From the NCBI GenBank assembly GCA_035698665.1, contig DASSBN010000013.1, positions 15,290-79,289 of the forward strand: 64,000 nucleotides of DNA. The letters run 5' to 3'. The position numbers and the translations under genes are program-made. Each line of letters opens with the position of its first letter. The first letter of the stretch is position 1. Below the pieces are notes generated by a model, which saw only the letters and a program-made list of their open reading frames with translations, had not been told where the DNA came from and made no database searches. The stretch comes from Gaiellaceae bacterium. Its GTDB lineage: Bacteria; Actinomycetota; Thermoleophilia; Gaiellales; Gaiellaceae. Positions 18,458 to 47,220 of the stretch are shown piece after piece.

Positions 18458-19036
18458 ATGAGCCGACGCCGCGACGAGCCGGTCCGCCTGACGAAGATCT
18501 ACACCCGCGGGGGCGACAAGGGCGAGACGAGCCGTGGAGACGGAAAGCGCGTGCCGAAGACCGACCCGCGCATCGCGGCGTACGGCACCGTGGACGAGCT
18601 CAACTCCCACCTCGGCCTCGTGCTCGCCACCGAGGACCTTGCCGCCGAGTTCCGGCCCTGGCTCGAGCAGGTGCAGAACGACCTCTTCGACGTCGGCGCC
18701 GACCTCTCCGTCCCCATCACCGACGAGCGCGAGCGGTTGCGCGTGCGCCAGCAGCAGGTCGACCGGCTCGAGGAGCTCTGCGACCGGGTCAACGAACGGC
18801 TCGAGCCTCTGAAGAGCTTTGTCCTTCCCGGCGGCGGGGAGGCGGCCGCCCGTCTGCACGTCGCCCGCGCCGTCTGCCGGCGGGCAGAACGGGAGGCTCA
18901 CGCCCTCACCGAGACGGAGGACGCAAGTCCCGTCGCGCTCGCATACCTGAACCGGCTCTCCGACCTGCTCTTCATCCTCGCCCGGGCCGCAGTGAGAGGC
19001 GAGGAACCGCTCTGGAAGCCTGGCAGCTCGCGCTAG
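18458..19036 (+). CDS. PduO-type ATP:cob(I)alamin adenosyltransferase
   Basis: The internal ATG of the track ORF was chosen. KIYTRGGDKGETS signature and LNRLSDLLF. Confidence 0.9.
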   Translation: MSRRRDEPVRLTKIYTRGGDKGETSRGDGKRVPKTDPRIAAYGTVDELNSHLGLVLATEDLAAEFRPWLEQVQNDLFDVGADLSVPITDERERLRVRQQQVDRLEELCDRVNERLEPLKSFVLPGGGEAAARLHVARAVCRRAEREAHALTETEDASPVALAYLNRLSDLLFILARAAVRGEEPLWKPGSSR

Positions 19037-19755
19037 CCGCCGCTGCCTCGTTCGGGGCAGGTGTGCTGGGCGGCGCCGTCGGCCTCGTTCTGGGCAGCCT
19101 GCGGCTCCCCGCGGTCATCTTCGCCTCCGGCAGCGCCGCAACCGCCGCCGGCACGAACATCGCGGTCAGCGCGGCCTCCGCGCTCACGGCCGGGGTGACG
19201 CACGCACGCGCCGGCCGCGTCGACTGGCGCATCGCCGCCTGGATGACCCCGCCCTCGGTGGCGGCCGCCTTTCTCGGCGGGTACTTCGGCGGGCGCGTGC
19301 CGGAGACGATCTTGCTCTCCGGCATCGCTGCGGCTCTTCTCTGGAACGGGATGCAGCTGCTCTTCGAGCTCGGCGCCCCGCCGCGCGCCCGGGACCCGCG
19401 GCTCGCCGCGGTGGTCGCCGGCGGGATCATCGGACTCATCGGCGGAGCGGTCGGACTCATCCTCGGGACGCTGCGCATGCCGGCCCTCCTCGGACGGGTG
19501 GGGATGCCCGCCGCGCGCGCGGTGGGCACGAACCTCGTCGTGGGCTTCTTCCTCGGCATGGCCGGCTTTGCGGGGCACGTCGTTCAGAGCGAGGTTGACT
19601 GGCCCGTTTTGGCGGTCAGCGTCGCGGCGGCCGTACCCGGCGCCTGGCTCGGGGCCCGGCTGACAGGGCGCATGTCCGAGCGCGTCCTCAAGCGGGCGAT
19701 CGGCGCGGTTCTCGTCGCGGTCGGAATCGCGATCGCGGTCGAGGCGGCGCTCTAG
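19012..19755 (+). CDS. TauE/SafE-family sulfite/anion exporter membrane protein
   Basis: The tail of track ORF 18361..19755 encodes repeated Gly-rich TM helices (GAGVLGGAVGLVLGSLRLP, GGIIGLIGGAVGLILGTLRMP). There is no in-frame ATG, so the start is either CTG 19012 or GTG 19063. Confidence 0.7.
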   Translation: MEAWQLALAAAASFGAGVLGGAVGLVLGSLRLPAVIFASGSAATAAGTNIAVSAASALTAGVTHARAGRVDWRIAAWMTPPSVAAAFLGGYFGGRVPETILLSGIAAALLWNGMQLLFELGAPPRARDPRLAAVVAGGIIGLIGGAVGLILGTLRMPALLGRVGMPAARAVGTNLVVGFFLGMAGFAGHVVQSEVDWPVLAVSVAAAVPGAWLGARLTGRMSERVLKRAIGAVLVAVGIAIAVEAAL

Positions 19756-22700
19756 CGTCCGAGGGCTGCGAAGGCCCTGCGCAGGGCGGAGGCGGTGCTG
19801 CGAACGAGCCGCTCGTCCCAGAAGAGAATCGGGCCGTCGAGCGCCTCCGCGCGCGCGACGGGCGGGATCAGCCGGCGCCGTGCGCGAAGCACCATCGCCC
19901 CGGCTCCGAGGAACAGGCCGGCCAAAAGGACGAGGCCCGCCGTGCGGCGGGCGCTCGAGACCTCGGACTGGTTGAAGCTCTCCGGCTCGGCCGCGCCGGC
20001 GCCTGCGGCGCCGCCCGCCGTGGGGTCGATCGGGTCGCCGCCGGTCGGCGGCGAGTCGGTCGGAGGTGCGCTGCTCGGAGGCGTCGTCACGGGCGGCGGC
20101 GAGGTGGGCGGCTGATACGTGGGGGGCTGGTAGGCCGGCGGCGGAGTGGTCGTGCCGCTGCCGGTGTCGCTCGTCCGGGCCGCTCGACCCTTCGAGACCT
20201 TCAGCGGCACCGCGGAGCCGCGTGCGGTGAGTCCGCTCTTCCCGGCCGCGACGACGGATCCCTTCGGGACGCTCGAGAAGACGTAGGTGAGCTTGCCGGC
20301 CTTCAAGCCACGCTTGGTCAGAGCCTTCTTCGCCTTGGCGAGCGGCATGTTCGCAACCTTCGGAACGACGACCAGGGCCGGGGTCTTCGCGCTCACGTTG
20401 CCGGCCGCATCCCGCGCGGCGACCTGGAACGAGCGCGCGTCCTTCTGTGAGAAGGCGCCCATGTCGACGGAGAGCGTCGAGGAGCCGAGCGTCTGCGCGA
20501 GCGTGCCGTTCACGTAGACGAGGTAGGCGTCTACGAGGCCGCTCGAGTCGGTCGAGGCCTTCCAGCTGAGCACGAGCCGGCCGCTCACGCTCTTGCCCTT
20601 GAAGCTCTTCGGCTTCGTCGGCGCGACGAGGTCACGGAGGAGCATGAAGCTGTCGGCCGAGCGCGTCAGGAGGTGGACGGTGTCGCCGTCCTTGTAGAAG
20701 CCCTGCTGCATCGACTCGGGGAGCGTCGTGCCGGAGAGGCGTGCGATCGGCTGCCAGGCGGAGCCGTTGAGGAAGGCGGGGACGACGTTGCCCGCGCCGT
20801 TCGTGAGCGTGAGCTCGATCGGCTCGTCGAAGGACGTCACCGCGCCGCCGGAGAGGGCCCAGTAGGCGGAGACGTCATAGACGTCGCCCTCCGCCGAGAA
20901 GCCGGAAGCCACGGCGCCGGCCGACTGGGGGTCGACCTTCGCGACGAGCCAGTCGCCGGCGGGCGCGCCGCTCCAGGCGCCTGCGGGGATGTGCAGCTGG
21001 CCGACGCCGTTGGTCGCGGCGACGGTCATCGCGGACGAGGCGAAGGAGTTCTTCTCGGTGTACGGGTAATCGCCACCCGTCGTGTTCCAGACCGTGAAGT
21101 GGACTCGGATCGGCGTGCGGTTGCCCGCGAGGTCCTCGAGCTCGCCGCTCAGCGTGTGCGGGCCTGGCGCGAACGCCTGCGTGAAGGTGACCGTCGCGCC
21201 GGTGGCGACGCCCGCAACGGACGAGCCGTCGATGTCGGAGGCGAAGACGTCCGCGAGATCCTCGTTTGCGGTGACGGCGAGCGAGCCGGCTGCGGTGACG
21301 TTCGACCCGTCCGAGGGCGCGGAGGAGGCCAGCGCCGGTGCCGTGTTGTCCACCCGCCGGTCGACGACCGCGGCCGACGTCGTCGCGTTGCCGGCGTTGT
21401 CCGTCACGCGGACGCGCAGGTCGTAGAGGCCGTCGGCGACGCCCGTCGTGTTCCAGGTCGCGGAGACGGTCGTCCACGTGTTCGCACCGGCGGGCGAGCG
21501 CTGATACGTGACGCTTGCGACGCCCGAGCCCGAATCCCCGGTGGTGGAGGTGAGGTTGACCGTGCCGCTCAGGTAGGCGCCCGGATCGTCCATGGAAGCA
21601 ATCGGGTCGGTGTTGTCGACGAGGCGGTCCTCGAGCACTGCGGAGGCGGCGGTGTTGCTCGCGTTGTCTGTGACGACGATGCGCAGGTCGTAGAGGCCGT
21701 CGGCCACTCCGGTCGTGTCCCAGTCCGCGGTGTACGGCGACGTCGTGTCGATCGCGATGTCGCTCCAGGTGCCGGCGTCCGCTGGAGAGGACTGGAAGAC
21801 GACCTGCTGGACACCGACACCGCTGTCGCTTGGCGAGGCCGAGAGGCCGACCGTACGGCGCAGGGGGCTGCCCGGGTCGGTGAGGCCGCCGCCCGGTGCC
21901 GTCGCGTCGAGCGTCCAGGTGTAGACGGCAGCGCTTCCGTCGGTGTTGCCGGCGATGTCCGTCGCGCGCACCCGGAAGGTGTGGCTGCCGTCGGCGAGGC
22001 CCGTGTAGGAGGCCGGGTCGGCGCAGGCTGCGAAGACGCCGCCGTCGAGGCGGCACTCGAAGCTGGAGCCGCCTTCGGTCGAGGTGAAGCTGAAGTCGGC
22101 GCTCGGCGAGGCGCTCGGGTCGGACGGAGTCGCCGTGATCGACGTGTCCGGAGCGGTCGTGTCCACCGTCCAGGTGTGGGTCTGGGGCGTCGCCTCTGCG
22201 TTGCCGGCAGCATCCGTCGCCTGCACGTCGAAGGTGTGCGTGCCCTCAGCGAGCGAGCTGTAGCTCTTCGGGCTGGCGCAGGGGCCGAACGATCCTCCGT
22301 CGAGGCGGCACTCGAAGCCGACGCCACCTTCGCTCCCGCTGAAGTCGAAGCTCGCGCCGGTCGCGCTCGTCGGATCGGACGGGGCCGAGTCGATGGACGT
22401 CACGGGACGCGTGCGATCGACGGTGACGTTGAGGACGTCCTCACCGGTGTTCGTGCCGACATCCGTGGCGACCGCGCGGAGAGCGGCGTTTCCGTCGGCC
22501 GGGAGCGGCCAGGATGCGGTGTACGGCGCCGCCGCGTCGCTTCCGAGGGAGACCCAGCTGCCCGAGGAGCAGTCGTTGCTCGCGTCCGAGCAGGAGAAGA
22601 ACTCGACGCCCGCGACGTCGCCGTCGGGGCTCGTCGCGCTGACCGTGAACGGGTCGGCATCGGCGAGGTTGACGAAGCCGCTCGGAGCCGTGATCGAGAC

Positions 22701-25700
22701 CGTCGGCGCGCCCGCGTTGACCGACCACGTGTAGGAGGCCGGCGTCGCGTCGGTGTTCCCGGCCTGGTCAGTGCTTCGCACCTGGAAGGTGTGGCTGCCG
22801 TCGGCGAGGCCGGAATAGCTCTTCGGGCTCGTGCAGCTCGTGAAGCCACCGCCGTCGAGCTCGCACTCGAAGGTGGAGCTTCCCTCGCTCGAGGAGAACT
22901 CGAAGGACGGGTTCGGGCTCGAATCAGGATCGGCCGGCGAGACGTCGATGGTGGTGTTCGGCGCGGACGTATCCACCGCCCACGTGAACTGCGCGGGCGA
23001 GGCGTCCGTGTTCCCGGCGATGTCAGTGCTTCGCACGTTGAAGGAGTGGCTGCCGTCGGCGAGGCCGGAATAGCTCTTCGGGCTCGTGCAGCTCGTGAAG
23101 CCGCCGCCGTCGAGCTCGCACTCGAAGGTCGAGCCGCCCTCGCTCGAGTCGAACGTGAAGTCCGCGTCCGCCGCGCTCGTCGGATCGCTCGGCGTCGAGC
23201 CGATGGACGTGTTCGGCTCGGAGGTGTCCACCGTCCAGGTGAACTGTGCGGGCGAGGAGTCCGTGTTCCCGGCGATGTCTGTCGCGCGCACCTTGAAGGT
23301 GTGGCTGCCCTCGGCGAGGCCGGCGTAGCTCTTCGGGCTCGTGCAGCTCGTGAAGCCGCCGCCGTCGAGCTCGCACTCGAATGTCGAGCCGGTCTCGGTC
23401 GCCGAGAAGGTGAAGGACGCGCCGGTTGCATTGGTCGGGTCGCCGGGCGTCGAGCCGATGGAGGTGTTCGGCGCGGTCTGGTCGACCTTGACGATGTTTC
23501 CGGAGGTGTAGATCGCCTCGTTCGAGACGTTGTCGAAGACGCGGTAGCGGTACTCCGCACACGTGTCGGTGGCCACCGTGTCGGGACCCGTGACGGTCGT
23601 CCAGCCTCCGGCGAACGCGGCGCATGTCCCGTCCGTCAGGGCAGAGGTGCGCCGCTCCAGCACGCCACTCGAGGCGTCGACGCCGGAAAGGGCATCCGTG
23701 CCGTTCGAGGTGGAGATCGTCACCTGGCCGTCGGCGTCGTAGCCGTCGGCGTACGTGACCGAGCCTCCCAAGGGCGCGTCATCGTCCGCGGTCGCGTCGA
23801 AGGTGCTCGACGAGGTGTTGCCGGCGTCGTCGTGGGCCGTGACGGTCTGCGTGCCGGCAAGGTCGCCCAGCGCGTAGATCGTCTGGTACGGCGAGGCCGA
23901 GTCGTCGACGCCTCCGGGGAAGGCGATCTTGGCGATCCCGGAGAGCGGGTCGTTCGAGGTCGCGGCGACGGTGTACGTGCCGCTTTGCCCGGTCTGCACG
24001 TAGATCGTCGTCCCGACGACGTGGGCGTACGGGCTCGACTCGCCGAGCGTGAGCGCCGGCGCCGAGGGGTCCGTCTGGTCGATGCGGATCTGCGTGGATG
24101 CGGTCTGGACGGGCTCCGCGTTACCCACCCGGTCGACCGAGAAGTACTTGACCGTGTAGACGCCGTTCGACGTCAGGTCGACGCTCGTGCCCTGCGCCGA
24201 GCTCGTCGTCGGAACGGAGCCGTCGGTCGTGTAGTACGTGGCTGCGAGGCCCGCCCCGCCGTCGCTCGGGCTCAGAGTCACCGTCACCGGCGCGTTCCGC
24301 CAGGCCGAGCCGATCGTGCCCGTGTCGTCGGTCGTGGACGGGTCGGTCGTGTCGGGCGTGACCGTGAAGGTGTCGGAGGCGGTCAGCCCTGCGTTCGAGT
24401 AGGCCGTGACCGTCTGCGAGCCCGAGAGCGCGCCGAAGCCGTAGCTCGCCTCGTACGGGCTCGTGAAGTCGTCCGTCGTCCCCGGGAAGCGGATCTTCTC
24501 GATTCCCGACTGCGCGTCCGAGCTCGTCGCCGAGACGTCGTAGCTTCCGCTCTGGCCCGTGTCGACGAAGATGGTCTGCCCGGAGACGAAGGCGTGCGGG
24601 CTCGACTCGGAGAGCGAGATGACCGGGGTGGCCGGGCCGCTCGTGTCGACCTTGACGACGTTTCCGGAGGAGTAGACGGCCTCGTTCCCGACGTTGTCGG
24701 AAACGCGGTAGCGGTACTGGGCGCAGGTGCCGGTGGCCACGGTGTCGGGGCTCGTGACGGTCGTCCAGCCGCCCGCGAAGCCGGCGCAGGAGCCGTCGGA
24801 GAGGGCCGAGGTGCGGCTTTCGAGGATGCCGCTCGAGGCGTCGACGCCGGAGAGCGCATCGTTGCCGTCGGAGGTCGAGATCGTCACCTGGCCGTCGGCG
24901 TCGTAGCCGTCGGCGTACGTGACCGAGCCGCCGGTCGGCGCCGCGGTGTCGGAGGTGACCGTGAAGCTCGAGGACGCCGTCAGGCCCGCGCCGTTCTCGG
25001 CCGTCACGGTCTGGGAGCCGGAGAGGTCGCCGAAGGCGTACGTAGCCTGGTACGGGCTCGTCGCATCGTCCTGGCCGGCCGGGAACGAGACCTGGTCGAT
25101 GCCGGACTGCGCGTCGTCGGTGGTCGCGTCGACGTCGTAGGAGCCTGCCTGCGCGGTGTTCAGGTAGACCGTCGTGCCGGAGACGAAGGCCCAGGCGCTC
25201 GACTCCGAGAGCGTGAGCGCAGGCCCGCTCGGTGCGCTCAGGTCGACCTGGACGACACTTCCGGACGTGTAGATCGCCTCGTTGCCGACGCGGTCGAAGA
25301 CGCGGTAGCGGTACTGGGCGCACTCGCCGGACGTAACCGAGTCGGGGCTCGTCACCGGCGTCCAGCCGCCCGAGAAGGAGCCGCACGAGCCGTCGGTCAG
25401 GGCCGACGTGCGGCGCTCGAGGACTCCGGAGGAGCCGTCGACGCCGGCGCCCGTGTCGTTTCCGTCCGCCGTGCTCACGACCACGTCGCCGTCCGCGTCG
25501 TAGCCGTCGGTGTAGGTGACGGAGCCGCCGGTGGGCGCGGTGACGTCGCGAACGAGGTCGAACGAGTCGTTGGTCGCGTTGCCGAGGGCGTCGGTGACCA
25601 CGACCGCCTGCGTGGCGGGCGCGGAGGCGCTCCCGGTCGTGAACGTGTAGGTGTTCGAGTCGTACGGGAAGGACGTGTCGCTCTTCGCCGAGCCCGAGAA

Positions 25701-28700
25701 GCCGGTGTCCGCGATCGCGGCGAAGTCGACGGAGGCGACGCCTGCCGGGTCGCTCGCGACGTCGTGGAGCGTGAAGTCTCCGGTCGCTGCGGGGTTGTAG
25801 TAGTACGTGTCCGTCGCCGAGTCGAAGTACTGCAGATCGGAGCGCGTGCCCTCGTTCACCGAGAGAACGCTGCTCGGGCCCGTGTTGTCGACGGAGACCG
25901 TGCGCTCGGCCGAGTCGGTCGCGTTGCCGACGTTGTCGGTCGCCCGCGCGACGATGGTGTACGTGCCGTCTGCGGGCTGGCCGCTCCAGGCGACCGAGTA
26001 GGGCGCCGCCGAGTCGGGCGCGCCGATCGCCGTTCCCGACGAGAACGAGCAGCTCGAGCCGGCGCAGTAGCGGAACTCGACCGTGTCGATCCCGGAGCCG
26101 GCATCGCCGGGGCTGGCCGAGACCGTCTGCCCGTCGGCGATCGAGTCGCCGGCGCCCGGAGCTGTGAGCGAGAAGGCGCTCGGGCCGGTCGTGTCGGGCG
26201 TGACCGTGAAGGTGTCGGAGGCGGTCAGGCCGGAGCCGTTATAGGACGTGACCGTCTGCGAGCCAGACAGGGCGCCGAAGCCGTAGCTCGCCTCGTACGG
26301 GCTCGTGAAGTCGTCGCTTCCACCGGGGAAGCGGATCTTCTCGATCCCCGACTGCGCGTCCGAGCTCGTCGCCGAGACGTCGTAGCTTCCGCTCTGGCCC
26401 GTGTCGACGAAGATGGTCTGCCCGGAGACGAAGGCGTGCGGGCTCGACTCGGAGAGCGAGATGACGGGGGCCGAGGGCGCCGTCGAGTCGACCGTGACGG
26501 TGAGGGCTGCGGAGGTGTGGGTGTTGCCCGCCGCATCGGTCGTGACCACGTGGAGGTCGAAGTCGCCGTTCAGCGCCGAGGTGTCCCAGCTGACCGAGTA
26601 CGGGGAGGACGTGTCGGTGTCGATCGCCGTCCACGTGCCGCCGCCCGCCGGCCGCCGCTCGAACAGGGCCGAGACGGCCCCCGAGCCCGCATCGTCCGAG
26701 TCGCTCGAGACCGAGACGGTGCCGGAGAGGAACGCGCCCCCGGTCGGCGAGGTGACCGAGCCCGTCGGATCCGTGCGGTCGACGAGCGTCGACACGACGT
26801 CGGAGCCCGTGTTCGAGGCGTTGTCCGTGATGATTGCGCGGAGCGCCTGGTTGCCGTCGCCGAGGACGTCCCAGGAGGCGGTGTACGGAGCGGTCGTGTC
26901 GGGCGCGCCGAGCGAGTCCCACGAGCCGGTCGAGCAGTTGGCGGACTGGTTGTCGCAGACGAAGAACTCGACGCTCGCGATGTCGGTGTCGGGGCTCGTC
27001 GCCGTGACGGTGAAGGGATCGGCCGCGGCCCCGTTCACGTACGCGCCGGGGGCCGTGATGGAGACCGTCGGCGCGTGGTTGTCCACGCTCACCGTGCGCG
27101 TCGCGGAGGAGAACGAGTTGCCAGCGGCGTCCGTGGTGAGGACGCGGAGATCGTAGTCGCCGTCACCGAGCGGCGTCGTGTCCCAGCTCACGGAGTAGGG
27201 ATCCGTGGTGTCCGTGGCGATCGTCGTCCAGGAGCCGCCGCCCGCCGGGCGCCGCTGGAAGGCCGCACTCGCGACGCCTGAGCCGGAGTCGTCCGAGTCG
27301 GACGAGACCGCGACCGTCCCCGACACCTGGGCGGTGTCGGCGGGAGCGGTCAGGGACCCAGTCGGATCGGTGTTGTCCACCGTGACCGTCTGCTTCGTCG
27401 AGTCGAGCGTGTTCCCGGCCCGGTCGGCGACGCGCACGAGCACCTGGTAGTCGCCGTCGGCCGGCTGGGAGCTCCACGTGACGGAGTAGCTCGGGCCGGT
27501 GCTGCTCGAGCCGATGAGCGTCGAGGGCGAGCAGGGCGGGCCCGGGCAGAAGTAGTAGGAGAGCGAGGCGACGCCCGAGCCGGAATCGGCGCCGGAGCCG
27601 GTGAGCGCCTGCCCGTTCGAGATCGCGCCCGGAAGCGCGTCGAGGGTCGCGCTCGAGGGGTTCGTGTTGTCGACCGTGACCGTGCGCGTCGCGGAGCTGA
27701 AGGAGTTGCCGGACTCGTCGTCCGTGGTCACGCGGAGGTCGTAGTCGCCGTCGGCGAGCGCCGTGGTGTCCCAGTCGACCGAGTACGGAGCCGAGCCGTC
27801 CGTTGCGATGGTCGTCCAGGAGCCGCCGCCCGACGGGCGCCGTTCGAAGGTGGCGAGGGCGACGCCGGAGCCCGCATCGGCCGAATCGGATGAGACCGTG
27901 ACGGCGTTCCCCGAGACGGCGGCGCCGTTCGCCGGGGCGGTGAGCGAGCCGGTCGGGTCGGTCGCATCAAAGGTGAAGGTTCGGGTGGAGGGTGACTCCG
28001 CGTTATCCGCGTTATCCGTCGCCTTCACGCGGACGGTGTAGTCGTCGTCGACCGGGAAGCTCGCCGCGCCGAAGGCGTACGACCAGTCGCCGGCCGAGAG
28101 CGCCGTCGTGAAGAAGAGCTCGGAGCCGGACGAGAAGGCGCTCCCGTTCCAGTAGAGGCCGGTGCCGAGGCGCTTGATCGAGAGCTCGACCTTCTGGACG
28201 CCGGACGTCGCGTCCGAGTAGGTGCCGCAGAAGCCGGCCGGGGTGCAGCCCGCGTTCCACGTCGAGGTGTGGTAGAACGCACCCGCGCCGGGGAAGCTCA
28301 CGGACGAGCTCGGCGCGGCGGTGTCGACCGACCACGTGAGCTCCGCAGGAGTCGCGTCGGTGTTCCCGGCGGCGTCAGTGCTTCGCACCTTGAACGTATG
28401 GCTGCCGTCGGAGAGGCTCGTGTAGGTCTTCGGGCTCGTGCAGGCGGAGAAGCCGCCGCCGTCGAGCTCGCACTCGAAGGTGGAGCCGCCCTCGTCCGCC
28501 GAGAACTCGAACGTTGCGTCGGCGGAGGCGGACGGGTCGGACGGGCCGGAATCGATGGCCGCATTCGGCGCGACGTTGTCGATCGTGAAGCTCCGGCTCG
28601 GCCCGGTCTCCGAGTTGCCCGCGTTGTCCGTCGCGCGGATGTGGACGGTGTAGCTCCCGTCGGCGGGGAAGCTCGAGGCCGGCAAAGCGTACGTCCAGTT

Positions 28701-31700
28701 GCCGCCCGCAAGGCTCGCGGCCTGGAAGTCCTCCGAGCCCGAGGAGAAGGCGCTGCCGTTCCAGTAGAGGCCGGTGCCGACGCGCCGGATCGAGACGTCC
28801 ACGGCCTGCACGCCCGACGTGGCGTCGGAGTACGTCCCGCAGAAGCCGCTCGTGGCACAGCCGGCATTCCAGCCGGAGTCCGCATACGCGCCGCCCGAGG
28901 CCGGGAAGGAGAAGGCCGCGCTCGGGTTCGCGTTGTCGATCCGGAAGGTGCGGCTCGGCCCCGGTTCGGTATTCGAGGCGTTGTCCGTCGCGCGGACGTG
29001 GACGGTGTAGGAGCCGTCCGCCGGGAAGCCTGCCGCCGCAAAGTCGTACGACCAGTTGCCGCCCGAGAGCGAGGCCGTCTGGAAGACCTCCGAGGCGCTG
29101 CCGAACGACGTGCCGTTCCAGTAGTTCCCGCTGCCGCGGCGGATCGAGATCTCGACGGCCTGGACTCCGGCGGTCGTGTCGGAGTAGGTGCCGCAGAAGC
29201 CTGCCGTGGCGCAGCCCGCGTCCCAAGCAGCGTTCGCGTAGTCACCGCCGGAGGCGGGGAATGAGAAGAGCGCGCTCGGATCCGCGGTGTCGTAGGTGAA
29301 GGAGCGGCTGGCCGGAGTCTCCCCGTTGCCGGCGTTGTCCGTCGCCTTGACCCGGATCGTGTAGCTGCCGTCGGCGGGGAAGTCGGTGGTGGAGAGCGCG
29401 TACGACCAGTCCCCGCCCGAGAGGCCGGCGAGGTTCCAGACCTCACCCGCGCTCGCGAAGGCTGAACCGTTCCAGTAGTTCCCCGAACCGCGCCTGATCG
29501 AAATCTCGACCTTCTGCACCCCAGACGTTGCGTCCGAGTAGGTGCCGCAGAAGCCCACGGTGGCGCAGCCCGCGTCCCAGCCGGAGGCGTTGTACTTGCC
29601 GCCCGAGGCGGGGAAGCTCGTGGTCGAGGACGGAGCCACGGTGTCGACGGTCCACGTGAACTGGGCCGGGGTGGGATCGGTGTTTCCGGCTCCGTCAGTG
29701 CTTCGCACCTTGAAGGTGTGGCTGCCTTCGGCGAGGGACGAGTAGTTCTTCGGGCTCGTGCAGGCGGAGAAGCCGCCGCCGTCGAGCTCGCACGCGAAGG
29801 TCGAGCCGCCCTCGTCGGCGGAGAATGTGAAGGTTGCGTCCGCGCTGGTGGACGGGTCGCTCGGGTTCGAGTCGATCGTCGTCTCAGGGGGCGTCGTGTC
29901 GTACGTGAACGTGCGGCTCGGGCCGGTCTCGGTGTTCCCTGCGTTGTCCGTTGCGCGGACGTGCACCGTGTAGCTCCCGCCGGCGGGGAAGCTCGAGGCC
30001 GGGAACGCGTAGGACCAGTCGCCACCGCCGGTCGTGGCCGTCTGGAAGACCTCGGTCGCGCTGCCGAACGTGGTGCCGTTCCAGTAGTTGCCGGTGCCCT
30101 GCCTGATCGAGATCTCGACGCCCTGGACGCCGGAGGTCGCGTCCGAGTACGTGCCGCAGAAGCCGGCGGTCGCGCAGCCGGCGCCCCAGCCGGTGCCGTC
30201 GTAGTTCGCGCCGGAGGCCGGGAAGGTGAAGACGGCGCTCGGGTTGACGGTGTCGACCGTCCACGTGAACTGCGCCGGGGTGGCATCCACGTTCCCCGCC
30301 TGGTCGGTGGCGCGCACCTTGAAGGTGTGGCTGCCCTCGGCGAGGCCGGAGTAGTTCTTCGGGCTCGAGCACGACGAGAAGCCGCCGCCGTCGAGCTCGC
30401 ACTCGAAGGTCGAGGAGCCCTCGGTCGAGCTGAACGTGAAGGTCGCGGCCGCGGAGTTCGAGGTCAGGCTGGGGCTCGAGTCGATGGTCGTCGCCGGTGC
30501 GACCGTGTCGACCGTCCACGTGAACTGCGCCGGAGTGGCATCGGTGTTCCCGGCCTGGTCGGTGGCGCGCACCTTGAAGGTGTGGCTTCCTTCGGCGAGG
30601 GACGAGTAGCTCTTCGGGCTCGAGCACGACGAGAAGCCGCCGCCGTCGAGCTCGCACTCGAAGGTCGAGGAGCCCTCGGTGGAGGAGAACGTGAAGGACG
30701 CGTTCGCCGAGCTCGAGGGGTCGGCCGGGTTCGAATCGATGATCGTGTTCGGGGCCGTGGCGTCGTAGCTGAAGGAACGGCTCGAAGGGGACTCGACGTT
30801 CGTCGCGTTGTCGGTCGCGCGCACGCGGATCGTGTAGCTGCCGTCGGCGGGGAAGCTGGCCGCGGAGAAGGCGTAGGACCAATTCCCGCCGGAGAGGCTC
30901 GCCGTGTTCCAGACCTCGCCCGCGCTCGAGAAGGAGCCGGCGCTCCAGTAGTTGCCGGAGCCCTGGCGGATCGAGATCTCGACCTTCTGCACCCCGGAGG
31001 TCGCGTCCGAGTAGGTGCCGCAGAAACCGATCGTCGCGCAGCCTGCGTTCCAGCCGGAGGTGGTGTAGTTCGCGGCGGAGGCCGGGAATGTCGTCGCCGA
31101 GCTGGGCGCGACGGAGTCGACCGTCCACGTGTAGGTCGCGGGCGTTCCGTCCGTGTTCCCCGCTCCGTCGGTGGCGCGGACGGTGAAGGTGTGGCTGCCC
31201 TGGCCCAGGGGCCCCGCATAGCTCTTGGGGCTGGTGCACGCCGAGTAGCCGCCGCCGTCGAGCTGGCACGCGAAGGTCGAGCCGCCCTCCGTCGAGGAGA
31301 AGCTGAAGCTCGCGCTCGTCGAGCTCGTCGGGTCGGACGGATTCGAGTCGATTGTCGTGTTCGGCGCCGTCCGGTCGATCGTGAACGAGCGGCTCGAGGG
31401 GCTCTCGGCGAGCGAGACGTTGTCCGTCGCGCGCACGCGGATCGTGTAGCTGCCATCCGCGGGGAAGCTCGAGGCCGGAAAGGTGTACGACCAGTTGCCG
31501 GCCGAGAGGGAGGTCGTGTTCCAGACCTCGCTCGCGCTCGAGAAGGAGCCGGCGCTCCAGTAGTTGCCCGCGCCCTGGCGAATGGAGATCTCGACCTTCT
31601 GGACGCCTGAGCCGCCCACGCCGTCCGAGTACGTTCCGCAGAAGCCGTTCGTCGCACACCCGCCGTTCCAGCCGCTCGTCGAGTACGTGGCGCCCGACCC

Positions 31701-33950
31701 GGGGAAGGTCGTCGTCGAAGACGGCTCGGCCGTGTCGACCGTCCACGTGTAGCTGGCCGCCGAGCCGTCGGTGTTCCCGGCTCCGTCAGTGCTTCGCACC
31801 TGAAAGGAGTGACTGCCGTCGGAGAGCGGGCCCGCGTAGCTCTTCGGGCTCGTGCACGCGGTGTAGCCGCCGCCGTCGAGCTGGCACTCGAAGGTCGAGC
31901 CGCCCTCCGTCGAGGAGAAGCTGAAGCTCGCGCTCGTGGAGGTCGTGGGGTCGGCGGGGTTCGCCGTGATCGATGTGTTCGGTGCCGCGGTGTCGATCGT
32001 GAAGGAGCGGCTCGCCGGCGCCTCGACGAGCGAGACGTTGTCCGTCGCGCGCACTCGGATCGTGTAGCTGCCATCCGCGGGGAAGCTCGAAGCCGGAAAG
32101 GTGTACGACCAGTTGCCGGCCGAGAGGGAGGTCGTGTTCCAGACCTCGCTCGCGCTCGAGAAGGAGCCGGCGCTCCAGTAGTTGCCTGCGCCCTGGCGAA
32201 TGGAGATCTCGACCTTCTGGACTCCCGAGCCGTTGGCGCCGTCGCCGTAGGTGCCGCAGAAGCCGTTGGTGGCGCAGCCGGCGTTCCAGCCCGCGGCGTT
32301 GTACGTGCCGCTCGCGGAGGGGAACGTGGTCGTCGACGTCGGCGCGTTGTTGTCGATCCGCCGGTTCGAGATGGTCGCCGAGTTTGCGGTGTTGCCGGCG
32401 CCGTCTGTGGCGACCGCGCGCAGGTCGTAGAGGCCGTCGCCGACTGCGGTCGTGTCGAAGGAGACCGAGTACGGGGAGGTCGTGTCTGCGGCGCCGACGT
32501 TCGTCCAGGTGCCCGCGCCCGCAGGCGAGCGCTGGAACTGCACCGACGCGACGTATGAGTCGGCATCGCTCGCAGCCGAGGTCTGCAGCGTGATCGTGCC
32601 GGTGACAGGCGAGCCCGGATCGCTCAACGTCACGCTCGGGGCGACGTCGTCGACGTGGAAGGCCGCCTGATGCGCATACACGCGCGCCGAAACGGTCGAG
32701 GTCGCGCTCGCGTTGCCGGTAGCTCCCGCGGTCACCTGGATCTTGTCCGCAGTCGAGGCGCTGATCCCCGTCGTATTGACGTCGCCGCGCTCGTTCCACC
32801 CGGTCGGGGGCGTGTAGGTCGAGTTGCTCGCGCTGCCGAAGAAGGCGAGCACGATGTCGTCGTTCGCCGTCGTCGTGATGCTATTCGCCGTCACCGTCGT
32901 CGTGTTGTTCGTGCTCACGACCGTGCCGGGCAGGTCGAGGGGCGCGCTCGACTTGACGCCGTAGTACGCAGTCACCGTGGCGGCGGCCGCCTGGGCGCCC
33001 GTCCAGGTGAACGAGTAGGAGGCGGGCTCCGACCCGCCCGCGATCTTGTAGAAGCTCGCCTGCGTGGCCTGGTTCGCTGACGTGCCCGAGGCGACCGCCG
33101 TCCAGCCCGATCCGGCCACGGTGGACGTGACGTTCCCGGTCACCATCACGTGGGCGACGAGGAGGTCATTCGCCTGGACGCCGGCGGGTTTGTTCACCGT
33201 CACCGACGTGCCGCTCGCCTGCGTCCCGGTCAGCGTGGCGCGGTGCGTGACGGCCGGGTCGATGACGTAGGGGAGCGGGAGCCCGGAGTCGTCGAGGCGA
33301 AGCGTCAGCCACCAGCTGCCGTTCCGCTGTTCGACGCCCCAGCGCAGGCCGTTGGGGGTGATGTCGTCGCCCTGGGCGTCGAGGATCGCGACGGGCGCGA
33401 TCGAGACGTCGGTGAGCTTGTGCAGCTTCGTGTCGAGGAACGCGACGGCGCCGTCGTCTCCGACGCGCGGAATCTGGGCCGTGTCGATCTTCCAGTGCCA
33501 CGTGCGCAGGCCCTGCCGTTCCCGGATGGTGAGGAACTGCTCGAGCGTGGGGCCGTCGACGAGGATCGTCTCGGCGCCGACTGCGGTCGGGCGCGAAACG
33601 CCGTTTTCGAAGTGATGCCAGTCGCCCGCCTCGGCGCCCTGCGTCGAGAGCGTGACCGTGGCGTTCCGGCTGCGGATGCGGAAGCTCGAGTCGTCGATCG
33701 CGAGCTCGACACCCGGCTGCGGGTGCCGCACGAGCGGAGCCTCGGACTCGGCTGCGCCGAGCGCATCTTCCAAAAACGCCGGCGGTGCCCCGGAGCGCGT
33801 CGCCCCGCCGAGTTGCAGGACGGCCATGAAGACCGCAGCCGCAAGGGCCGCGAGCGCCGCCAGCCGCACCGGCGATGCGCTGCGCAAAACGGCGACACGC
33901 TCGGCCTCCGCCGAGCGCTCACCGGGCCGCAGTTCCGGAAAGTTCGTCAT
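19752..33950 (-). CDS. giant (4,732 aa) repeat-rich cell-surface protein: N-terminal signal anchor, arrays of Ig-like modules, FN3, PASTA, Pro-rich spacer, C-terminal TM
   Basis: A single uninterrupted 14.2 kb frame with consistent GC3. Module families are visible by eye (8 GFCGTY-type and about 11 TWTVD-type, among others). Confidence 0.9.
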   Translation of the reverse strand: MTNFPELRPGERSAEAERVAVLRSASPVRLAALAALAAAVFMAVLQLGGATRSGAPPAFLEDALGAAESEAPLVRHPQPGVELAIDDSSFRIRSRNATVTLSTQGAEAGDWHHFENGVSRPTAVGAETILVDGPTLEQFLTIRERQGLRTWHWKIDTAQIPRVGDDGAVAFLDTKLHKLTDVSIAPVAILDAQGDDITPNGLRWGVEQRNGSWWLTLRLDDSGLPLPYVIDPAVTHRATLTGTQASGTSVTVNKPAGVQANDLLVAHVMVTGNVTSTVAGSGWTAVASGTSANQATQASFYKIAGGSEPASYSFTWTGAQAAAATVTAYYGVKSSAPLDLPGTVVSTNNTTTVTANSITTTANDDIVLAFFGSASNSTYTPPTGWNERGDVNTTGISASTADKIQVTAGATGNASATSTVSARVYAHQAAFHVDDVAPSVTLSDPGSPVTGTITLQTSAASDADSYVASVQFQRSPAGAGTWTNVGAADTTSPYSVSFDTTAVGDGLYDLRAVATDGAGNTANSATISNRRIDNNAPTSTTTFPSASGTYNAAGWNAGCATNGFCGTYGDGANGSGVQKVEISIRQGAGNYWSAGSFSSASEVWNTTSLSAGNWSYTFPASSFPADGSYTIRVRATDNVSLVEAPASRSFTIDTAAPNTSITANPADPTTSTSASFSFSSTEGGSTFECQLDGGGYTACTSPKSYAGPLSDGSHSFQVRSTDGAGNTDGSAASYTWTVDTAEPSSTTTFPGSGATYSTSGWNGGCATNGFCGTYSDGVGGSGVQKVEISIRQGAGNYWSAGSFSSASEVWNTTSLSAGNWSYTFPASSFPADGSYTIRVRATDNVSLAESPSSRSFTIDRTAPNTTIDSNPSDPTSSTSASFSFSSTEGGSTFACQLDGGGYSACTSPKSYAGPLGQGSHTFTVRATDGAGNTDGTPATYTWTVDSVAPSSATTFPASAANYTTSGWNAGCATIGFCGTYSDATSGVQKVEISIRQGSGNYWSAGSFSSAGEVWNTASLSGGNWSYAFSAASFPADGSYTIRVRATDNATNVESPSSRSFSYDATAPNTIIDSNPADPSSSANASFTFSSTEGSSTFECELDGGGFSSCSSPKSYSSLAEGSHTFKVRATDQAGNTDATPAQFTWTVDTVAPATTIDSSPSLTSNSAAATFTFSSTEGSSTFECELDGGGFSSCSSPKNYSGLAEGSHTFKVRATDQAGNVDATPAQFTWTVDTVNPSAVFTFPASGANYDGTGWGAGCATAGFCGTYSDATSGVQGVEISIRQGTGNYWNGTTFGSATEVFQTATTGGGDWSYAFPASSFPAGGSYTVHVRATDNAGNTETGPSRTFTYDTTPPETTIDSNPSDPSTSADATFTFSADEGGSTFACELDGGGFSACTSPKNYSSLAEGSHTFKVRSTDGAGNTDPTPAQFTWTVDTVAPSSTTSFPASGGKYNASGWDAGCATVGFCGTYSDATSGVQKVEISIRRGSGNYWNGSAFASAGEVWNLAGLSGGDWSYALSTTDFPADGSYTIRVKATDNAGNGETPASRSFTYDTADPSALFSFPASGGDYANAAWDAGCATAGFCGTYSDTTAGVQAVEISIRRGSGNYWNGTSFGSASEVFQTASLSGGNWSYDFAAAGFPADGSYTVHVRATDNASNTEPGPSRTFRIDNANPSAAFSFPASGGAYADSGWNAGCATSGFCGTYSDATSGVQAVDVSIRRVGTGLYWNGSAFSSGSEDFQAASLAGGNWTYALPASSFPADGSYTVHIRATDNAGNSETGPSRSFTIDNVAPNAAIDSGPSDPSASADATFEFSADEGGSTFECELDGGGFSACTSPKTYTSLSDGSHTFKVRSTDAAGNTDATPAELTWSVDTAAPSSSVSFPGAGAFYHTSTWNAGCTPAGFCGTYSDATSGVQKVELSIKRLGTGLYWNGSAFSSGSELFFTTALSAGDWSYAFGAASFPVDDDYTVRVKATDNADNAESPSTRTFTFDATDPTGSLTAPANGAAVSGNAVTVSSDSADAGSGVALATFERRPSGGGSWTTIATDGSAPYSVDWDTTALADGDYDLRVTTDDESGNSFSSATRTVTVDNTNPSSATLDALPGAISNGQALTGSGADSGSGVASLSYYFCPGPPCSPSTLIGSSSTGPSYSVTWSSQPADGDYQVLVRVADRAGNTLDSTKQTVTVDNTDPTGSLTAPADTAQVSGTVAVSSDSDDSGSGVASAAFQRRPAGGGSWTTIATDTTDPYSVSWDTTPLGDGDYDLRVLTTDAAGNSFSSATRTVSVDNHAPTVSITAPGAYVNGAAADPFTVTATSPDTDIASVEFFVCDNQSANCSTGSWDSLGAPDTTAPYTASWDVLGDGNQALRAIITDNASNTGSDVVSTLVDRTDPTGSVTSPTGGAFLSGTVSVSSDSDDAGSGAVSALFERRPAGGGTWTAIDTDTSSPYSVSWDTSALNGDFDLHVVTTDAAGNTHTSAALTVTVDSTAPSAPVISLSESSPHAFVSGQTIFVDTGQSGSYDVSATSSDAQSGIEKIRFPGGSDDFTSPYEASYGFGALSGSQTVTSYNGSGLTASDTFTVTPDTTGPSAFSLTAPGAGDSIADGQTVSASPGDAGSGIDTVEFRYCAGSSCSFSSGTAIGAPDSAAPYSVAWSGQPADGTYTIVARATDNVGNATDSAERTVSVDNTGPSSVLSVNEGTRSDLQYFDSATDTYYYNPAATGDFTLHDVASDPAGVASVDFAAIADTGFSGSAKSDTSFPYDSNTYTFTTGSASAPATQAVVVTDALGNATNDSFDLVRDVTAPTGGSVTYTDGYDADGDVVVSTADGNDTGAGVDGSSGVLERRTSALTDGSCGSFSGGWTPVTSPDSVTSGECAQYRYRVFDRVGNEAIYTSGSVVQVDLSAPSGPALTLSESSAWAFVSGTTVYLNTAQAGSYDVDATTDDAQSGIDQVSFPAGQDDATSPYQATYAFGDLSGSQTVTAENGAGLTASSSFTVTSDTAAPTGGSVTYADGYDADGQVTISTSDGNDALSGVDASSGILESRTSALSDGSCAGFAGGWTTVTSPDTVATGTCAQYRYRVSDNVGNEAVYSSGNVVKVDTSGPATPVISLSESSPHAFVSGQTIFVDTGQSGSYDVSATSSDAQSGIEKIRFPGTTDDFTSPYEASYGFGALSGSQTVTAYSNAGLTASDTFTVTPDTTDPSTTDDTGTIGSAWRNAPVTVTLSPSDGGAGLAATYYTTDGSVPTTSSAQGTSVDLTSNGVYTVKYFSVDRVGNAEPVQTASTQIRIDQTDPSAPALTLGESSPYAHVVGTTIYVQTGQSGTYTVAATSNDPLSGIAKIAFPGGVDDSASPYQTIYALGDLAGTQTVTAHDDAGNTSSSTFDATADDDAPLGGSVTYADGYDADGQVTISTSNGTDALSGVDASSGVLERRTSALTDGTCAAFAGGWTTVTGPDTVATDTCAEYRYRVFDNVSNEAIYTSGNIVKVDQTAPNTSIGSTPGDPTNATGASFTFSATETGSTFECELDGGGFTSCTSPKSYAGLAEGSHTFKVRATDIAGNTDSSPAQFTWTVDTSEPNTSIGSTPSDPTSAADADFTFDSSEGGSTFECELDGGGFTSCTSPKSYSGLADGSHSFNVRSTDIAGNTDASPAQFTWAVDTSAPNTTIDVSPADPDSSPNPSFEFSSSEGSSTFECELDGGGFTSCTSPKSYSGLADGSHTFQVRSTDQAGNTDATPASYTWSVNAGAPTVSITAPSGFVNLADADPFTVSATSPDGDVAGVEFFSCSDASNDCSSGSWVSLGSDAAAPYTASWPLPADGNAALRAVATDVGTNTGEDVLNVTVDRTRPVTSIDSAPSDPTSATGASFDFSGSEGGVGFECRLDGGSFGPCASPKSYSSLAEGTHTFDVQATDAAGNAEATPQTHTWTVDTTAPDTSITATPSDPSASPSADFSFTSTEGGSSFECRLDGGVFAACADPASYTGLADGSHTFRVRATDIAGNTDGSAAVYTWTLDATAPGGGLTDPGSPLRRTVGLSASPSDSGVGVQQVVFQSSPADAGTWSDIAIDTTSPYTADWDTTGVADGLYDLRIVVTDNASNTAASAVLEDRLVDNTDPIASMDDPGAYLSGTVNLTSTTGDSGSGVASVTYQRSPAGANTWTTVSATWNTTGVADGLYDLRVRVTDNAGNATTSAAVVDRRVDNTAPALASSAPSDGSNVTAAGSLAVTANEDLADVFASDIDGSSVAGVATGATVTFTQAFAPGPHTLSGELEDLAGNRTPIRVHFTVWNTTGGDYPYTEKNSFASSAMTVAATNGVGQLHIPAGAWSGAPAGDWLVAKVDPQSAGAVASGFSAEGDVYDVSAYWALSGGAVTSFDEPIELTLTNGAGNVVPAFLNGSAWQPIARLSGTTLPESMQQGFYKDGDTVHLLTRSADSFMLLRDLVAPTKPKSFKGKSVSGRLVLSWKASTDSSGLVDAYLVYVNGTLAQTLGSSTLSVDMGAFSQKDARSFQVAARDAAGNVSAKTPALVVVPKVANMPLAKAKKALTKRGLKAGKLTYVFSSVPKGSVVAAGKSGLTARGSAVPLKVSKGRAARTSDTGSGTTTPPPAYQPPTYQPPTSPPPVTTPPSSAPPTDSPPTGGDPIDPTAGGAAGAGAAEPESFNQSEVSSARRTAGLVLLAGLFLGAGAMVLRARRRLIPPVARAEALDGPILFWDERLVRSTASALRRAFAALGR
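19887..19943 (-). other. C-terminal TM segment of the giant protein, followed by RARRR and a ~45-aa tail
   Basis: TAGLVLLAGLFLGAGAMVL, then RARRRLIPP... Confidence 0.7.
20187..20369 (-). other. PASTA-like domain of the giant protein
   Basis: VVPKVANMPLAKAKKALTKRGLKAGKLTYVFSSVPKGSVVAAGKSGLTARGSAVPLKVSKG fits the PASTA pattern VPxVxGxxxxxAxxxLxxxGLxxG...VxxGxVxxxxPxxGxxxxxGxxVxLxVSxG. Confidence 0.6.
20370..20630 (-). other. fibronectin type III-like domain of the giant protein (approximate)
   Basis: PTKPKSFKGKSVSGRLVLSWKASTDSSGLVDAYLVYVNG..SFQVAARDAAGNVS follows the FN3 pattern. Confidence 0.6.
21900..23485 (-). repeat. second array of B-type (FECxLDGG...TWTVD) modules (approximate bounds)
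   Basis: Five further B-type modules, interrupted by one Ig-like module with the VEFF(S/V)C motif. Confidence 0.75.
27965..32345 (-). repeat. alternating A/B Ig-like module array inside the giant gene (approximate bounds)
   Basis: A modules are about 100 aa: FPxSGxxY..GWNAGCATxGFCGTYSD..GVQKVEISIRxGxGNYW..FPADGSYTxxVRATDN. B modules are about 85-100 aa: PNTxIxSxPxDP..FxFSSTEGxSTFECxLDGGGFxxCxSPKxY..GSHTFxVRxTDxAGNxD..TWTVDT. Confidence 0.8.
33810..33869 (-). other. N-terminal signal-anchor/TM segment of the giant protein
   Basis: VRLAALAALAAAVFMAVLQL (aa ~28-47), preceded by charged residues. Confidence 0.7.
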
Positions 33951-34153
33951 GTGGTCTCAGTCCTCGGGCGCCCTACACCGCGCGCGATTCCTGGACGGGA
34001 CATCGTCCGGCCAGGGGGTGGAGCGGCCTCGATTCGGTATGAGAAAGGACTGAACTGCCCGAACTTCCCTCGTTCGAGGGAGCTTTGGCGCCGGAACTTG
34101 AAGAAGACGCGGCCGGCGGCCAGAATCAGGGAAACCCCGCGAAGGAGAAGACC

Positions 34154-46864: not shown

Positions 46865-47220
46865 ACTCTTCCTCTCCGCAGTTTCGGCCTCGATCTTCTT
46901 CCTTTTCGAGCCCGATGTCTACTACCAGACGTACGGCGTTCCGTGGTTCTTCCTATCGCGATTCCCGTAGGGCGCGAATGCGGCGAACGCCGTCTTTTCG
47001 CCCTGTCCTCGCCGTCATAGCCTGATCCCGGAGAGATGTCCCCGCGTTTCGACGCGGGCTGCGGACGAGGGAGGAGCGGGTTGCGTTACCGGGTCACCCA
47101 AGGACGGCTTCTTGCCTACGCGCCGACGAGGCGCGGCCTTCGTTCGTTTCGTCCGAGAGGAGGTGACGGCGCGGACAAGACGGAAGGCGCATTTCTGCGG
47201 CAATTCAACTAGGAGGCAAG

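Follow-up and report, generated by a model that had tools for sequence, protein, structure and literature searches.

A 14.2-kb gene of Gaiellaceae encoding a giant protein of Ig-like modules, possibly a membrane-anchored surface fibre

We analyzed a stretch of 64,000 nucleotides (the window) from a Gaiellaceae bacterium, positions 15,290 to 79,289 of contig DASSBN010000013.1 in assembly GCA_035698665.1. Gaiellaceae are abundant soil Actinomycetota and are almost entirely uncultured. A preliminary description of the window had pointed to a single open reading frame (ORF) occupying 22% of it. We found that this ORF, 14,199 nt long, is a genuine and intact gene for a giant modular protein. On balance we favour the reading that the product is exported by the Sec route, anchored in the membrane at its C-terminus, and forms a fibre of approximately 40 immunoglobulin (Ig)-like domains with a distal head, specific to the Gaiellaceae lineage. 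The parts of the gene, all on the minus strand, are as follows (residue numbers refer to the protein).

19752..33950 (-), complete coding sequence of the giant gene, ATG start, 4,732 codons and a stop
33864..33950 (-), residues 1-29, charged N-terminal peptide with a conserved motif, predicted cytoplasmic
33804..33863 (-), residues 30-49, hydrophobic h-region or transmembrane helix LAALAALAAAVFMAVLQLGG, from hydropathy (helix 27-49 in the AlphaFold2 model)
33246..33755 (-), residues 66-235, head domain 1, beta-sandwich ending LPLPYVIDP
32649..33245 (-), residues 236-434, head domain 2, jelly-roll with the DLLVA...GW motif, from BFVD fold and tblastn matches
32352..32648 (-), residues 435-533, first C-type Ig domain (Big_7), from Pfam
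27966..32351 (-), residues 534-1995, variable spacer array of 14 modules, A B A B A B B A B A A A B A
26487..27965 (-), residues 1996-2488, block C-Cc-C-Cc-C of Big_7/Big_13 Ig domains, where Cc is a variant with a Cys pair; order conserved in orthologues
23481..26486 (-), residues 2489-3490, D block, D1 Cc E D2 D1 D2 D1 F D1 D2, from linker splitting and profiles
within the D block (-), residues 3201-3291, the single F module, a CHB_HEX_C_1 (chitobiase-C-type) domain, from Pfam
21348..23480 (-), residues 3491-4201, conserved C-proximal block B B B Cc B B C C (C C at 4016-4201)
20631..21347 (-), CopC-like Ig domain (residues 4202-4290) and a beta-sandwich of 150 residues called X (4291-4440), conserved in all orthologues
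20373..20630 (-), residues 4441-4526, FN3 domain, from sequence and fold matches to PDB 1k85
20181..20372 (-), residues 4527-4590, single PASTA domain, from Pfam PF03793 and PDB 3py9 and 2mgv
19944..20180 (-), residues 4591-4669, low-complexity stalk rich in Pro, Thr and Ser
19887..19943 (-), residues 4670-4688, C-terminal transmembrane helix TAGLVLLAGLFLGAGAMVL, from hydropathy
19755..19886 (-), residues 4689-4732, cytoplasmic tail with a conserved motif, RARRR and 39 further residues

The ORF itself, its base composition and a database deposit agreed on the reality of the gene. The GC content at codon positions 1, 2 and 3 was 0.56, 0.61 and 0.93, respectively, and the value for the third position (GC3) was 0.89-0.96 in each block of 300 codons. 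Since GC3 is uniformly high, the frame is coding throughout (the GC content of the host genome is approximately 70%). A Shine-Dalgarno sequence, GAGGA, lies 10 nt 5' of the ATG. The annotated start appears right, because the N-terminal peptide that follows it is common to the orthologues. The protein has a mass of 480 kDa, a pI of 4.1 and an ectodomain net charge of about -292. It is identical to NCBI HET6656454.1, 'MAG TPA: Ig-like domain-containing protein [Gaiellaceae bacterium]' (MAG, metagenome-assembled genome; TPA, third-party annotation), and is thus already deposited, uncharacterised, under a generic name. An antisense ORF of 2,202 codons at 20673..27281 (+) has an inverted GC profile (GC1 0.94, GC3 0.57) and was rejected as a gene; it is a shadow ORF. 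The plus strand showed a GC skew of +0.06 to +0.12 across 20001-34000, against about 0 elsewhere. This skew is compositional and no replication signal, as the protein is rich in Ser, Thr, Ala and Asp, with C-ending codons on the minus strand. A search of the window against Rfam gave no match.

The DNA repeats inside the gene were 60-82% identical, with a single pair at 90% (over 300 nt). We counted 20 repeated 100-mers, and no exact repeat was left at k = 120. As the repeats have diverged and none is exact up to 120 nt, collapse in a short-read assembly is unlikely. Intactness of orthologues was judged by the frame consistency of their module matches. The longest ORF was discounted as a test, because off-frames stay open in DNA of 70% GC (in locus L015 one frame is open although the module matches change frame). 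The same module order, with all module matches in one frame, was found in six short-read loci (L006, L012, L013, L022, L024 and L029), and the long-read locus L019 has the order of the window gene with its frame intact. Frame changes were detected in L001, L002, L003, L010, L014, L021 and similar loci, whose MAGs are all Nanopore assemblies from the Microflora Danica project (PMC12313526). Indel errors of Nanopore sequencing are the best explanation, since the changes gather in assemblies of that kind. The dN/dS ratio (NG86) of the window gene against L013, L004 and L006 was 0.25-0.37, and the gene is under purifying selection. An assembly chimera or a frameshift-interrupted ORF, concerns raised in the preliminary description, is unlikely: the repeats have diverged and the module order recurs in independent assemblies.

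Module boundaries were set by splitting the protein at a recurrent linker, after ...xD and before x-x-x-P. Profile comparison served to classify the A, B and D modules, and structures were predicted for the two termini. The motifs reported earlier for the A and B modules (both with a Cys pair) and for the C and D modules were all present by regular-expression count (8 A, 11 B). GC[AT]xxGFCGTY occurs 8 times, FxCxLDGG 11 times and G[ST]Y[DT]VxA[TS] 4 times, and the D-unit motifs GGSVTYxDGYDADG and CA[QE]YRYRV occur 3 times each. The A module has 118-120 residues and a CxxxxxC loop, and the B module has 85-86 residues and the motif FECxLDGG...C. The counts were 8 modules of type A, 11 of type B and 10 of the C type, the last in two forms. 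There are 52 Cys in the whole protein, every one in an intramodule pair (26 pairs).

The claim of four families held as far as the Ig-like nature of the modules is concerned, but more than four types are present (A, B, C, Cc, D1/E, D2, CHB_HEX_C_1, CopC-like and X). Likewise, the D unit of about 200 residues exists, but it is actually a pair of two domains of about 100 residues each, D1 and D2. We compared profiles made from module alignments enriched with homologues with the C/Big_7 profile in hhalign and obtained probabilities of 98.2% for A, 97.9% for B, 96.8% for D1, 98.2% for D2 and 97.2% for F; the E module is a variant of D1 (E-D1 99.7%). Because hhalign ties each module type to C/Big_7, the repeats represent, from their profiles, approximately eight subtypes within one bacterial Ig-like superfamily and not four families. 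Among Pfam models Big_13 matched with 452 bits over 23 stretches, and Big_7, Big_3_2/3/4 and PASTA were also found; in NCBIfam, NF033510 (Ca_tandemer) matched as well. For D1, E, D2, X and the head, Pfam gave no match with the cut-off relaxed to E<=1. In its C-terminal half, the A module matched Ca2+-stabilised extender domains, those of MpIBP (RII; 4p99, E 2.8e-8) and SiiE (2yn3, E 3.8e-6). A PDB profile search with the D1-D2 alignment returned nothing meaningful. We detected the D1-D2 unit in 999 library proteins at E<=1e-3 and in 146 at E<=1e-30. Its carriers are often 2,000-6,000 residues long, and the few that are named come from Gaiellaceae or Thermoleophilia; the relatives of our protein that have this unit are likewise giants of 3,015-5,969 residues. 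The composition of the protein is acidic (pI 4.1) and an Asp is conserved at each xD-x3-P linker; from these sequence features, Ca2+ probably stiffens the Ig-like rod.

The C-terminal cassette was supported by sequence and by structure. The CopC-like Ig domain gave CopC fold matches with a template modelling score (TM-score) of 0.65, and the X beta-sandwich had no family match. The FN3 domain had no Pfam fn3 match at E<=1, and it was identified through the FnIII domain 1k85 in the PDB (E 2.5e-7; Foldseek TM-score 0.79, root mean square deviation (rmsd) 2.4 A, 35% identity). The PASTA domain scored 26.9 bits with Pfam PF03793 as a segment and 24.2 bits within the whole protein (cut-off 23.2). 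In the PDB it matched 3py9 (E 4e-5), 3m9g and 2mgv. In the AlphaFold2 model of the C-terminus (mean predicted local distance difference test, pLDDT, 92) the PASTA region consists of a helix (336-345) and strands, and PF03793 is precomputed in most orthologues. The stalk (19 Pro, 12 Thr and 10 Ser in 76 residues) ends in a conserved S..RR motif. Thus Pfam, PDB, fold and hydropathy results bear out the FN3 domain, the PASTA domain, the Pro/Thr stalk, the transmembrane helix, the RARRR sequence and a tail of 44-45 residues.

We scanned one genome per GTDB species for the motifs of the C-terminal cassette and found it in 29 species genomes, all of them Gaiellaceae or Thermoleophilia MAGs. Homologues of both termini came only from Gaiellaceae, Thermoleophilia or actinomycete MAGs. 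The gene is single-copy. At the loci for which flanks were available it lies between, on the divergent side, a methylmalonyl-CoA mutase gene and, on the other side, genes for cobalamin adenosyltransferase/TauE, an HD-GYP response regulator, 3-hydroxyacyl-CoA dehydrogenase, thiolase, an M48 peptidase and a DUF4389 protein. The C-proximal order '...D1 D2 D1 F D1 D2 B B B Cc B B C C Ig X FN3 PASTA' was present in 22 of the 29 loci, and each of B7-B11 is most like the module at the same position in L006. In a shorter subfamily (L007-L009, L011 and L028) just the end of this order is kept, with six to seven C modules followed by B, C, Ig, X, FN3 and PASTA. None of the modules of the window protein matched the regions upstream in these five loci (L007, L008, L009, L011, L028). 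Three homologues (P0023, P0025 and P0028) carry a different repeat, 'GSGTLT...TFTYTA', after the same head.

The N-proximal array is variable. It has 5-8 A modules with interspersed B in L015, L026 and L021, about 27 B modules only in L014 and D1-D2 pairs only in L001, and the gene spans approximately 3,500 to 3,940 codons in these orthologues (L015, L026, L021, L014, L001), compared with 4,732 here. This pattern of sequence suggests that the N-proximal array may be an adjustable spacer between conserved ends. As its length and composition vary, a fixed-length ruler is argued against. The preliminary description had offered an envelope ruler, an adhesin or a sheath component as possible roles. 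The ruler is weakened by orthologues of approximately 3,500-4,700 residues with very different spacer composition, and the adhesin fits best, with a phage-tail-like jelly-roll head opposite a C-terminal anchor. Nothing that we observed speaks for or against a sheath component.

The first 500 residues or so, previously described as unique, consist instead of two beta-sandwich head domains (66-434) and the first C-type Ig domain (435-533). AlphaFold2 modelled the head as two beta-sandwiches (mean pLDDT 84; about 85-90 in domain 1). Head domain 1 is the most conserved part (it was found conserved in L001, L002, L014, L015 and L026), and it had no match in Pfam or among PDB sequences. Searches with the N-terminal 440 residues in Pfam, PDB sequences and PDB folds gave no family, and the fold matches were generic beta-sandwiches with a TM-score below 0.25. 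A PHROGs search gave a single marginal match. In BFVD, among predicted viral structures, a stretch of about 205-215 residues of the head matched many Caudovirales proteins of about 200-250 residues and also mycobacteriophage 'minor tail protein' domains (TM-score 0.7-0.79, rmsd 2.5-3.2 A, 21-28% identity); these matches were placed on head domain 2 by alignment length alone, as Foldseek gave no query coordinates. By tblastn, residues ~239-313 (DLLVA...GW) matched minor tail proteins of Rhodococcus phages (41% identity over 75 residues, E 1e-5). Head domain 2 appears less well kept in some orthologues, and tblastn covered head residues ~57-240 in L001 and ~59-300 in L002. In the model, the jelly-roll of the head resembles actinophage minor tail proteins, and the head would bind an external ligand, probably a glycan or a surface.

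Hydropathy analysis revealed hydrophobic segments at residues 26-51 and 4670-4690. The N-terminal one is 20-23 residues long, may be a cleavable Sec signal or a signal anchor, and is followed by a candidate signal-peptidase site, GGA/T. Several close homologues have GAP at this position (Pro at +1); the region is not conserved and does not form a conserved AxA site. The charged peptide before it, M-x3-P-x-LRP-x-E..SA(E/D).E...VLR..SPVR, is conserved in orthologues of about 50% overall identity. The tail motif RARR(R/P)...(D/E)xP(I/L)-LFWD(E/Q)RL......LRR was found in more than 20 orthologues, in which the ectodomain identity is only 45-85%. Neither of these terminal motifs matched a known motif family or partner. 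The statement that LPXTG, S-layer homology (SLH) and type I secretion features are missing was upheld, with regular expressions, Pfam, NCBIfam and the C-terminal helix and tail in agreement. There was no LPXTG or LAXTG in the protein by regular expression, no SLH domain in Pfam and NCBIfam searches, and no RTX/HemolysinCabind match in Pfam. Other export and anchoring types were rejected: a Tat signal, for want of a twin-Arg motif; a lipoprotein, as there is no Cys for a lipobox; a sortase-anchored (MSCRAMM-like) protein, as the motif is absent and the tail is 44 residues long and conserved; and an S-layer protein anchored through SLH domains, as no SLH domain was matched.

Four homologues (P0098, P0189, P0205 and P0087) keep the PxLRP N-terminal module, the head, the repeats, X, FN3 and PASTA, and have the stalk, transmembrane helix and tail swapped for a basic beta-sandwich and a receiver (CheY)-like alpha/beta domain. 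The match of this last domain to PF00072 (E 0.02) is below threshold, and no transmembrane segment lies between it and the ectodomain; such a receiver-like fold would lie outside the cell. As these proteins replace all three C-terminal elements, the C-terminal attachment device is exchangeable. We considered the tail as a remnant of the receiver-like domain and rejected this, as only the last ~10 residues are alike and the Pfam match is below threshold.

In the reading that we favour, the N-terminal hydrophobic segment would send the protein to Sec, and the ~4,600 residues threaded out would fold into ~41 beta-sandwich modules, locked by disulfides where a Cys pair exists. The C-terminal helix and the RARRR stop-transfer sequence would anchor the chain in the cytoplasmic membrane and leave the 44-residue tail inside. 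The Pro/Thr stalk would cross a thin wall; the only cultured relative, Gaiella occulta, has a thin peptidoglycan layer (PMC6741124). The single PASTA domain, at or just above the peptidoglycan, would hold the base non-covalently through peptidoglycan or lipid II. PASTA domains bind muropeptides and localise PknB (PMC3145798), and by this analogy the fibre is probably associated with the wall through its PASTA domain. The acidic rod of Ig-like domains, of the order of 0.15-0.2 um if extended (estimated from ~4-5 nm per domain), would project the head outward. If the signal is cleaved, the two-domain head would be distal and would bind an external ligand, and the N-proximal array (A/B, D1-D2 or B only) may serve as a spacer adjustable in evolution.

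Several observations weigh against this reading. The N-terminal peptide is conserved as strongly as the folded domains, which is unusual for a disposable signal peptide, and two Arg lie on the outer side of the C-terminal transmembrane helix. The head has no convincing fold match in the PDB, and its sequence likeness to phage proteins spans just ~75 residues. The gene was not among the matches named Gaiella occulta. Further, synteny, a single copy, core-gene status and purifying selection suit a housekeeping component of the envelope better than a typical accessory adhesin.

An alternative is the double anchoring proposed in the preliminary description. Here the signal anchor would not be cleaved, both termini would stay in the membrane, and the ectodomain of ~4,600 residues would bend over the wall as a hairpin or loop, acting as a structural coat, a spacer or a mechanical link between wall and cytoplasm through the conserved end motifs. 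We regard such a loop as possible though rather unlikely. The hydrophobic N-terminal helix of 20-23 residues has the length of a transmembrane segment, predicted cytoplasmic peptides are conserved at both ends (PxLRP...VLR..SPVR and LFWDxRL...LRR), and Pro occupies +1 of the best candidate cleavage site in several close homologues. The gene behaves as a core gene (synteny, purifying selection, single copy), and the relatives without the C-terminal transmembrane helix retain the same N-terminal module. However, the window protein has an acceptable GGA/T site, a head close to the membrane would waste a jelly-roll of the binding type, and length is not conserved (3,500-4,700 residues). To our knowledge there is no doubly anchored giant Ig-repeat protein, and we count this against the loop. 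A conserved n-region motif is also no proof that the anchor is retained, since the YSIRK/GXXS motif of staphylococcal giant and other surface proteins is described as part of a signal peptide that is cleaved (PMC5962339).

A more specific version, a loop of ~40 Ig domains doubly anchored throughout the family, with both cytoplasmic peptides docking a partner and PASTA docking peptidoglycan, seems improbable to us. If true, it would be an envelope-spanning scaffold or mechanosensor with no described bacterial counterpart.

The protein could also be a transmembrane sensor, whose ectodomain would sense wall status, load or a ligand and signal through the C-terminal helix to a partner that binds LFWDxRL. 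The motif of the 44-residue tail is conserved, PASTA is typical of wall-sensing kinases (PMC3145798), some relatives have a receiver-like alpha/beta domain at the C-terminus, and the gene for an HD-GYP response regulator is conserved nearby. We find this highly improbable, as no enzymatic or known signalling domain is present in the tail, and the receiver-like match is below threshold (E 0.02) and, with no transmembrane segment between it and the ectodomain, would be extracellular. The neighbours are housekeeping genes whose linkage looks like general synteny, and ~40 spacer domains are needless for sensing.

A chimera or pseudogene, with a long ORF made of mis-joined repeats, is hardly credible: the source is a short-read TPA MAG with a contig of 90 kb, most database homologues are fragments and the Nanopore orthologues are frame-broken, but GC3 keeps a uniform value of 0.93 and the frame is unbroken along all 14.2 kb, the repeats are at most 90% identical over 300 nt with none exact to 120 nt, the module order is repeated across many independent assemblies (L019, L006, L013 and L029 among them), the frame changes cluster in Nanopore assemblies as indel errors would, and dN/dS is below 0.4.

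We compared the membrane-anchored fibre that we favour with known systems. Ebh/GSSP of Staphylococcus aureus (1.1 MDa) is similarly a giant, repetitive, Sec-exported protein of a monoderm that reaches out through the wall, with an N-terminal signal, a C-terminal transmembrane anchor followed by basic residues and no LPXTG (PMC4856396). However, its repeats are helical (FIVAR-GA/DUF1542, none of which was found here by Pfam) and not Ig-like. It has a YSIRK signal and no PASTA domain, in contrast to the PxLRP N-terminus and PASTA domain found here, and the two are not related in sequence. The RTX extender adhesins MpIBP (Marinomonas), SiiE (Salmonella) and LapA (Pseudomonas) resemble our protein in presenting a ligand-binding region on long acidic tandems of Ig-like domains of ~100 residues. 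They leave the cell by a type I secretion system (T1SS) that uses a C-terminal RTX signal, and their N-terminus holds them in the outer membrane, whereas the giant protein has no RTX repeats, a C-terminal transmembrane helix, a monoderm host and the opposite anchoring polarity. By analogy it would work like Ebh and the RTX extender adhesins but belong to neither family, since FIVAR/GA repeats, RTX repeats and T1SS are all absent.

The eleven B modules match NF047446, the OmpL47-type beta-barrel domain, with 405 bits over 15 stretches. The equivalog NF047441 scored 289 bits (cut-off 250) only via the tandem B modules at residues 3682-3939. OmpL47 of Leptospira is a multi-barrel spirochaete surface protein of ~336 residues that differs in architecture, host and anchor. 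Because the whole architecture differs, the match points to sharing of a domain and not to equivalence. PknB-type kinases and PBP2x-type transpeptidases also have extracytoplasmic PASTA beside a single transmembrane helix, but they have 2-4 PASTA domains, compared with one here, and the giant protein has no kinase or transpeptidase domain. Its PASTA domain lies N-terminal to the helix at the base of the ectodomain, the opposite orientation to PknB. The minor tail proteins of Rhodococcus and Mycobacterium phages share the jelly-roll fold of ~200 residues with head domain 2; they are virion proteins, while here the domain is part of the head of a surface protein of a cell.

The giant gene is monocistronic; its upstream neighbour is divergent and its downstream neighbour convergent. 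We looked for a dedicated partner; no secretion, sortase or glycosylation gene adjoins it and its neighbours are housekeeping genes. As for T1SS, a pair of ABC-2 transporter genes lies 2.5 kb upstream, but there was no gene for a membrane fusion protein (MFP) or TolC. The stop codon of the giant gene overlaps that of the convergent TauE-family gene (about 19033-19755, +) at 19752-19755, and consequently there is no intergenic room for a terminator. The divergent gene at 34154-34699 (+) encodes a small secreted protein of 181 residues that begins with MRHTTRTAVLFFSLLLLTTGSTALA followed by TDG. It is preceded by the Shine-Dalgarno sequence GAAGGAG and has no Pfam match, and it is absent at this position in L001, where the intergenic gap is 170 bp. 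The HD-GYP response regulator, of the cyclic di-GMP (c-di-GMP) phosphodiesterase type, is encoded at 17346-18422 (+), 1.3 kb past the 3' end of the giant gene, and its synteny is kept in L001. c-di-GMP controls other giant adhesins; nothing here ties the HD-GYP gene specifically to the giant gene. A second probable surface protein is encoded at 47167-49227 (+). It has SpaA-type prealbumin-fold domains (PF24514 1.3e-27, PF17802 3.4e-14) and an N-terminal hydrophobic segment, and ends ...CTIVVDP. As this protein has no LPXTG, there is no sign of sortase substrates in the window.

Proteins of this size are not exceptional among the giant proteins of bacteria (PMC11573180; bioRxiv 10.1101/2023.11.21.568195). 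A giant modular Ig-repeat surface protein is of a familiar, adhesin-like kind and brings no new biological principle. Our literature searches returned no paper on this family. What is new is the architecture, with the PxLRP N-terminal module, the phage-tail-like head and the cassette of X, FN3, PASTA, stalk, transmembrane helix and LFWD tail; this anchoring design has not been described for giant Ig-repeat proteins. Also new are the rank of the gene as a syntenic core gene among those Gaiellaceae genomes in which it was detected (29 species) and two widespread repeat domains without a Pfam model, D1 and D2. The conserved termini can be used as markers for recovering genes of this family that are fragmented by short-read assemblies or frameshifted by Nanopore ones. 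In summary, the giant gene is probably among the largest in Gaiellaceae, and the protein is a good candidate for a structure that dominates the cell surface and could serve to attach the cells to soil particles, to polymers or to one another or other cells.

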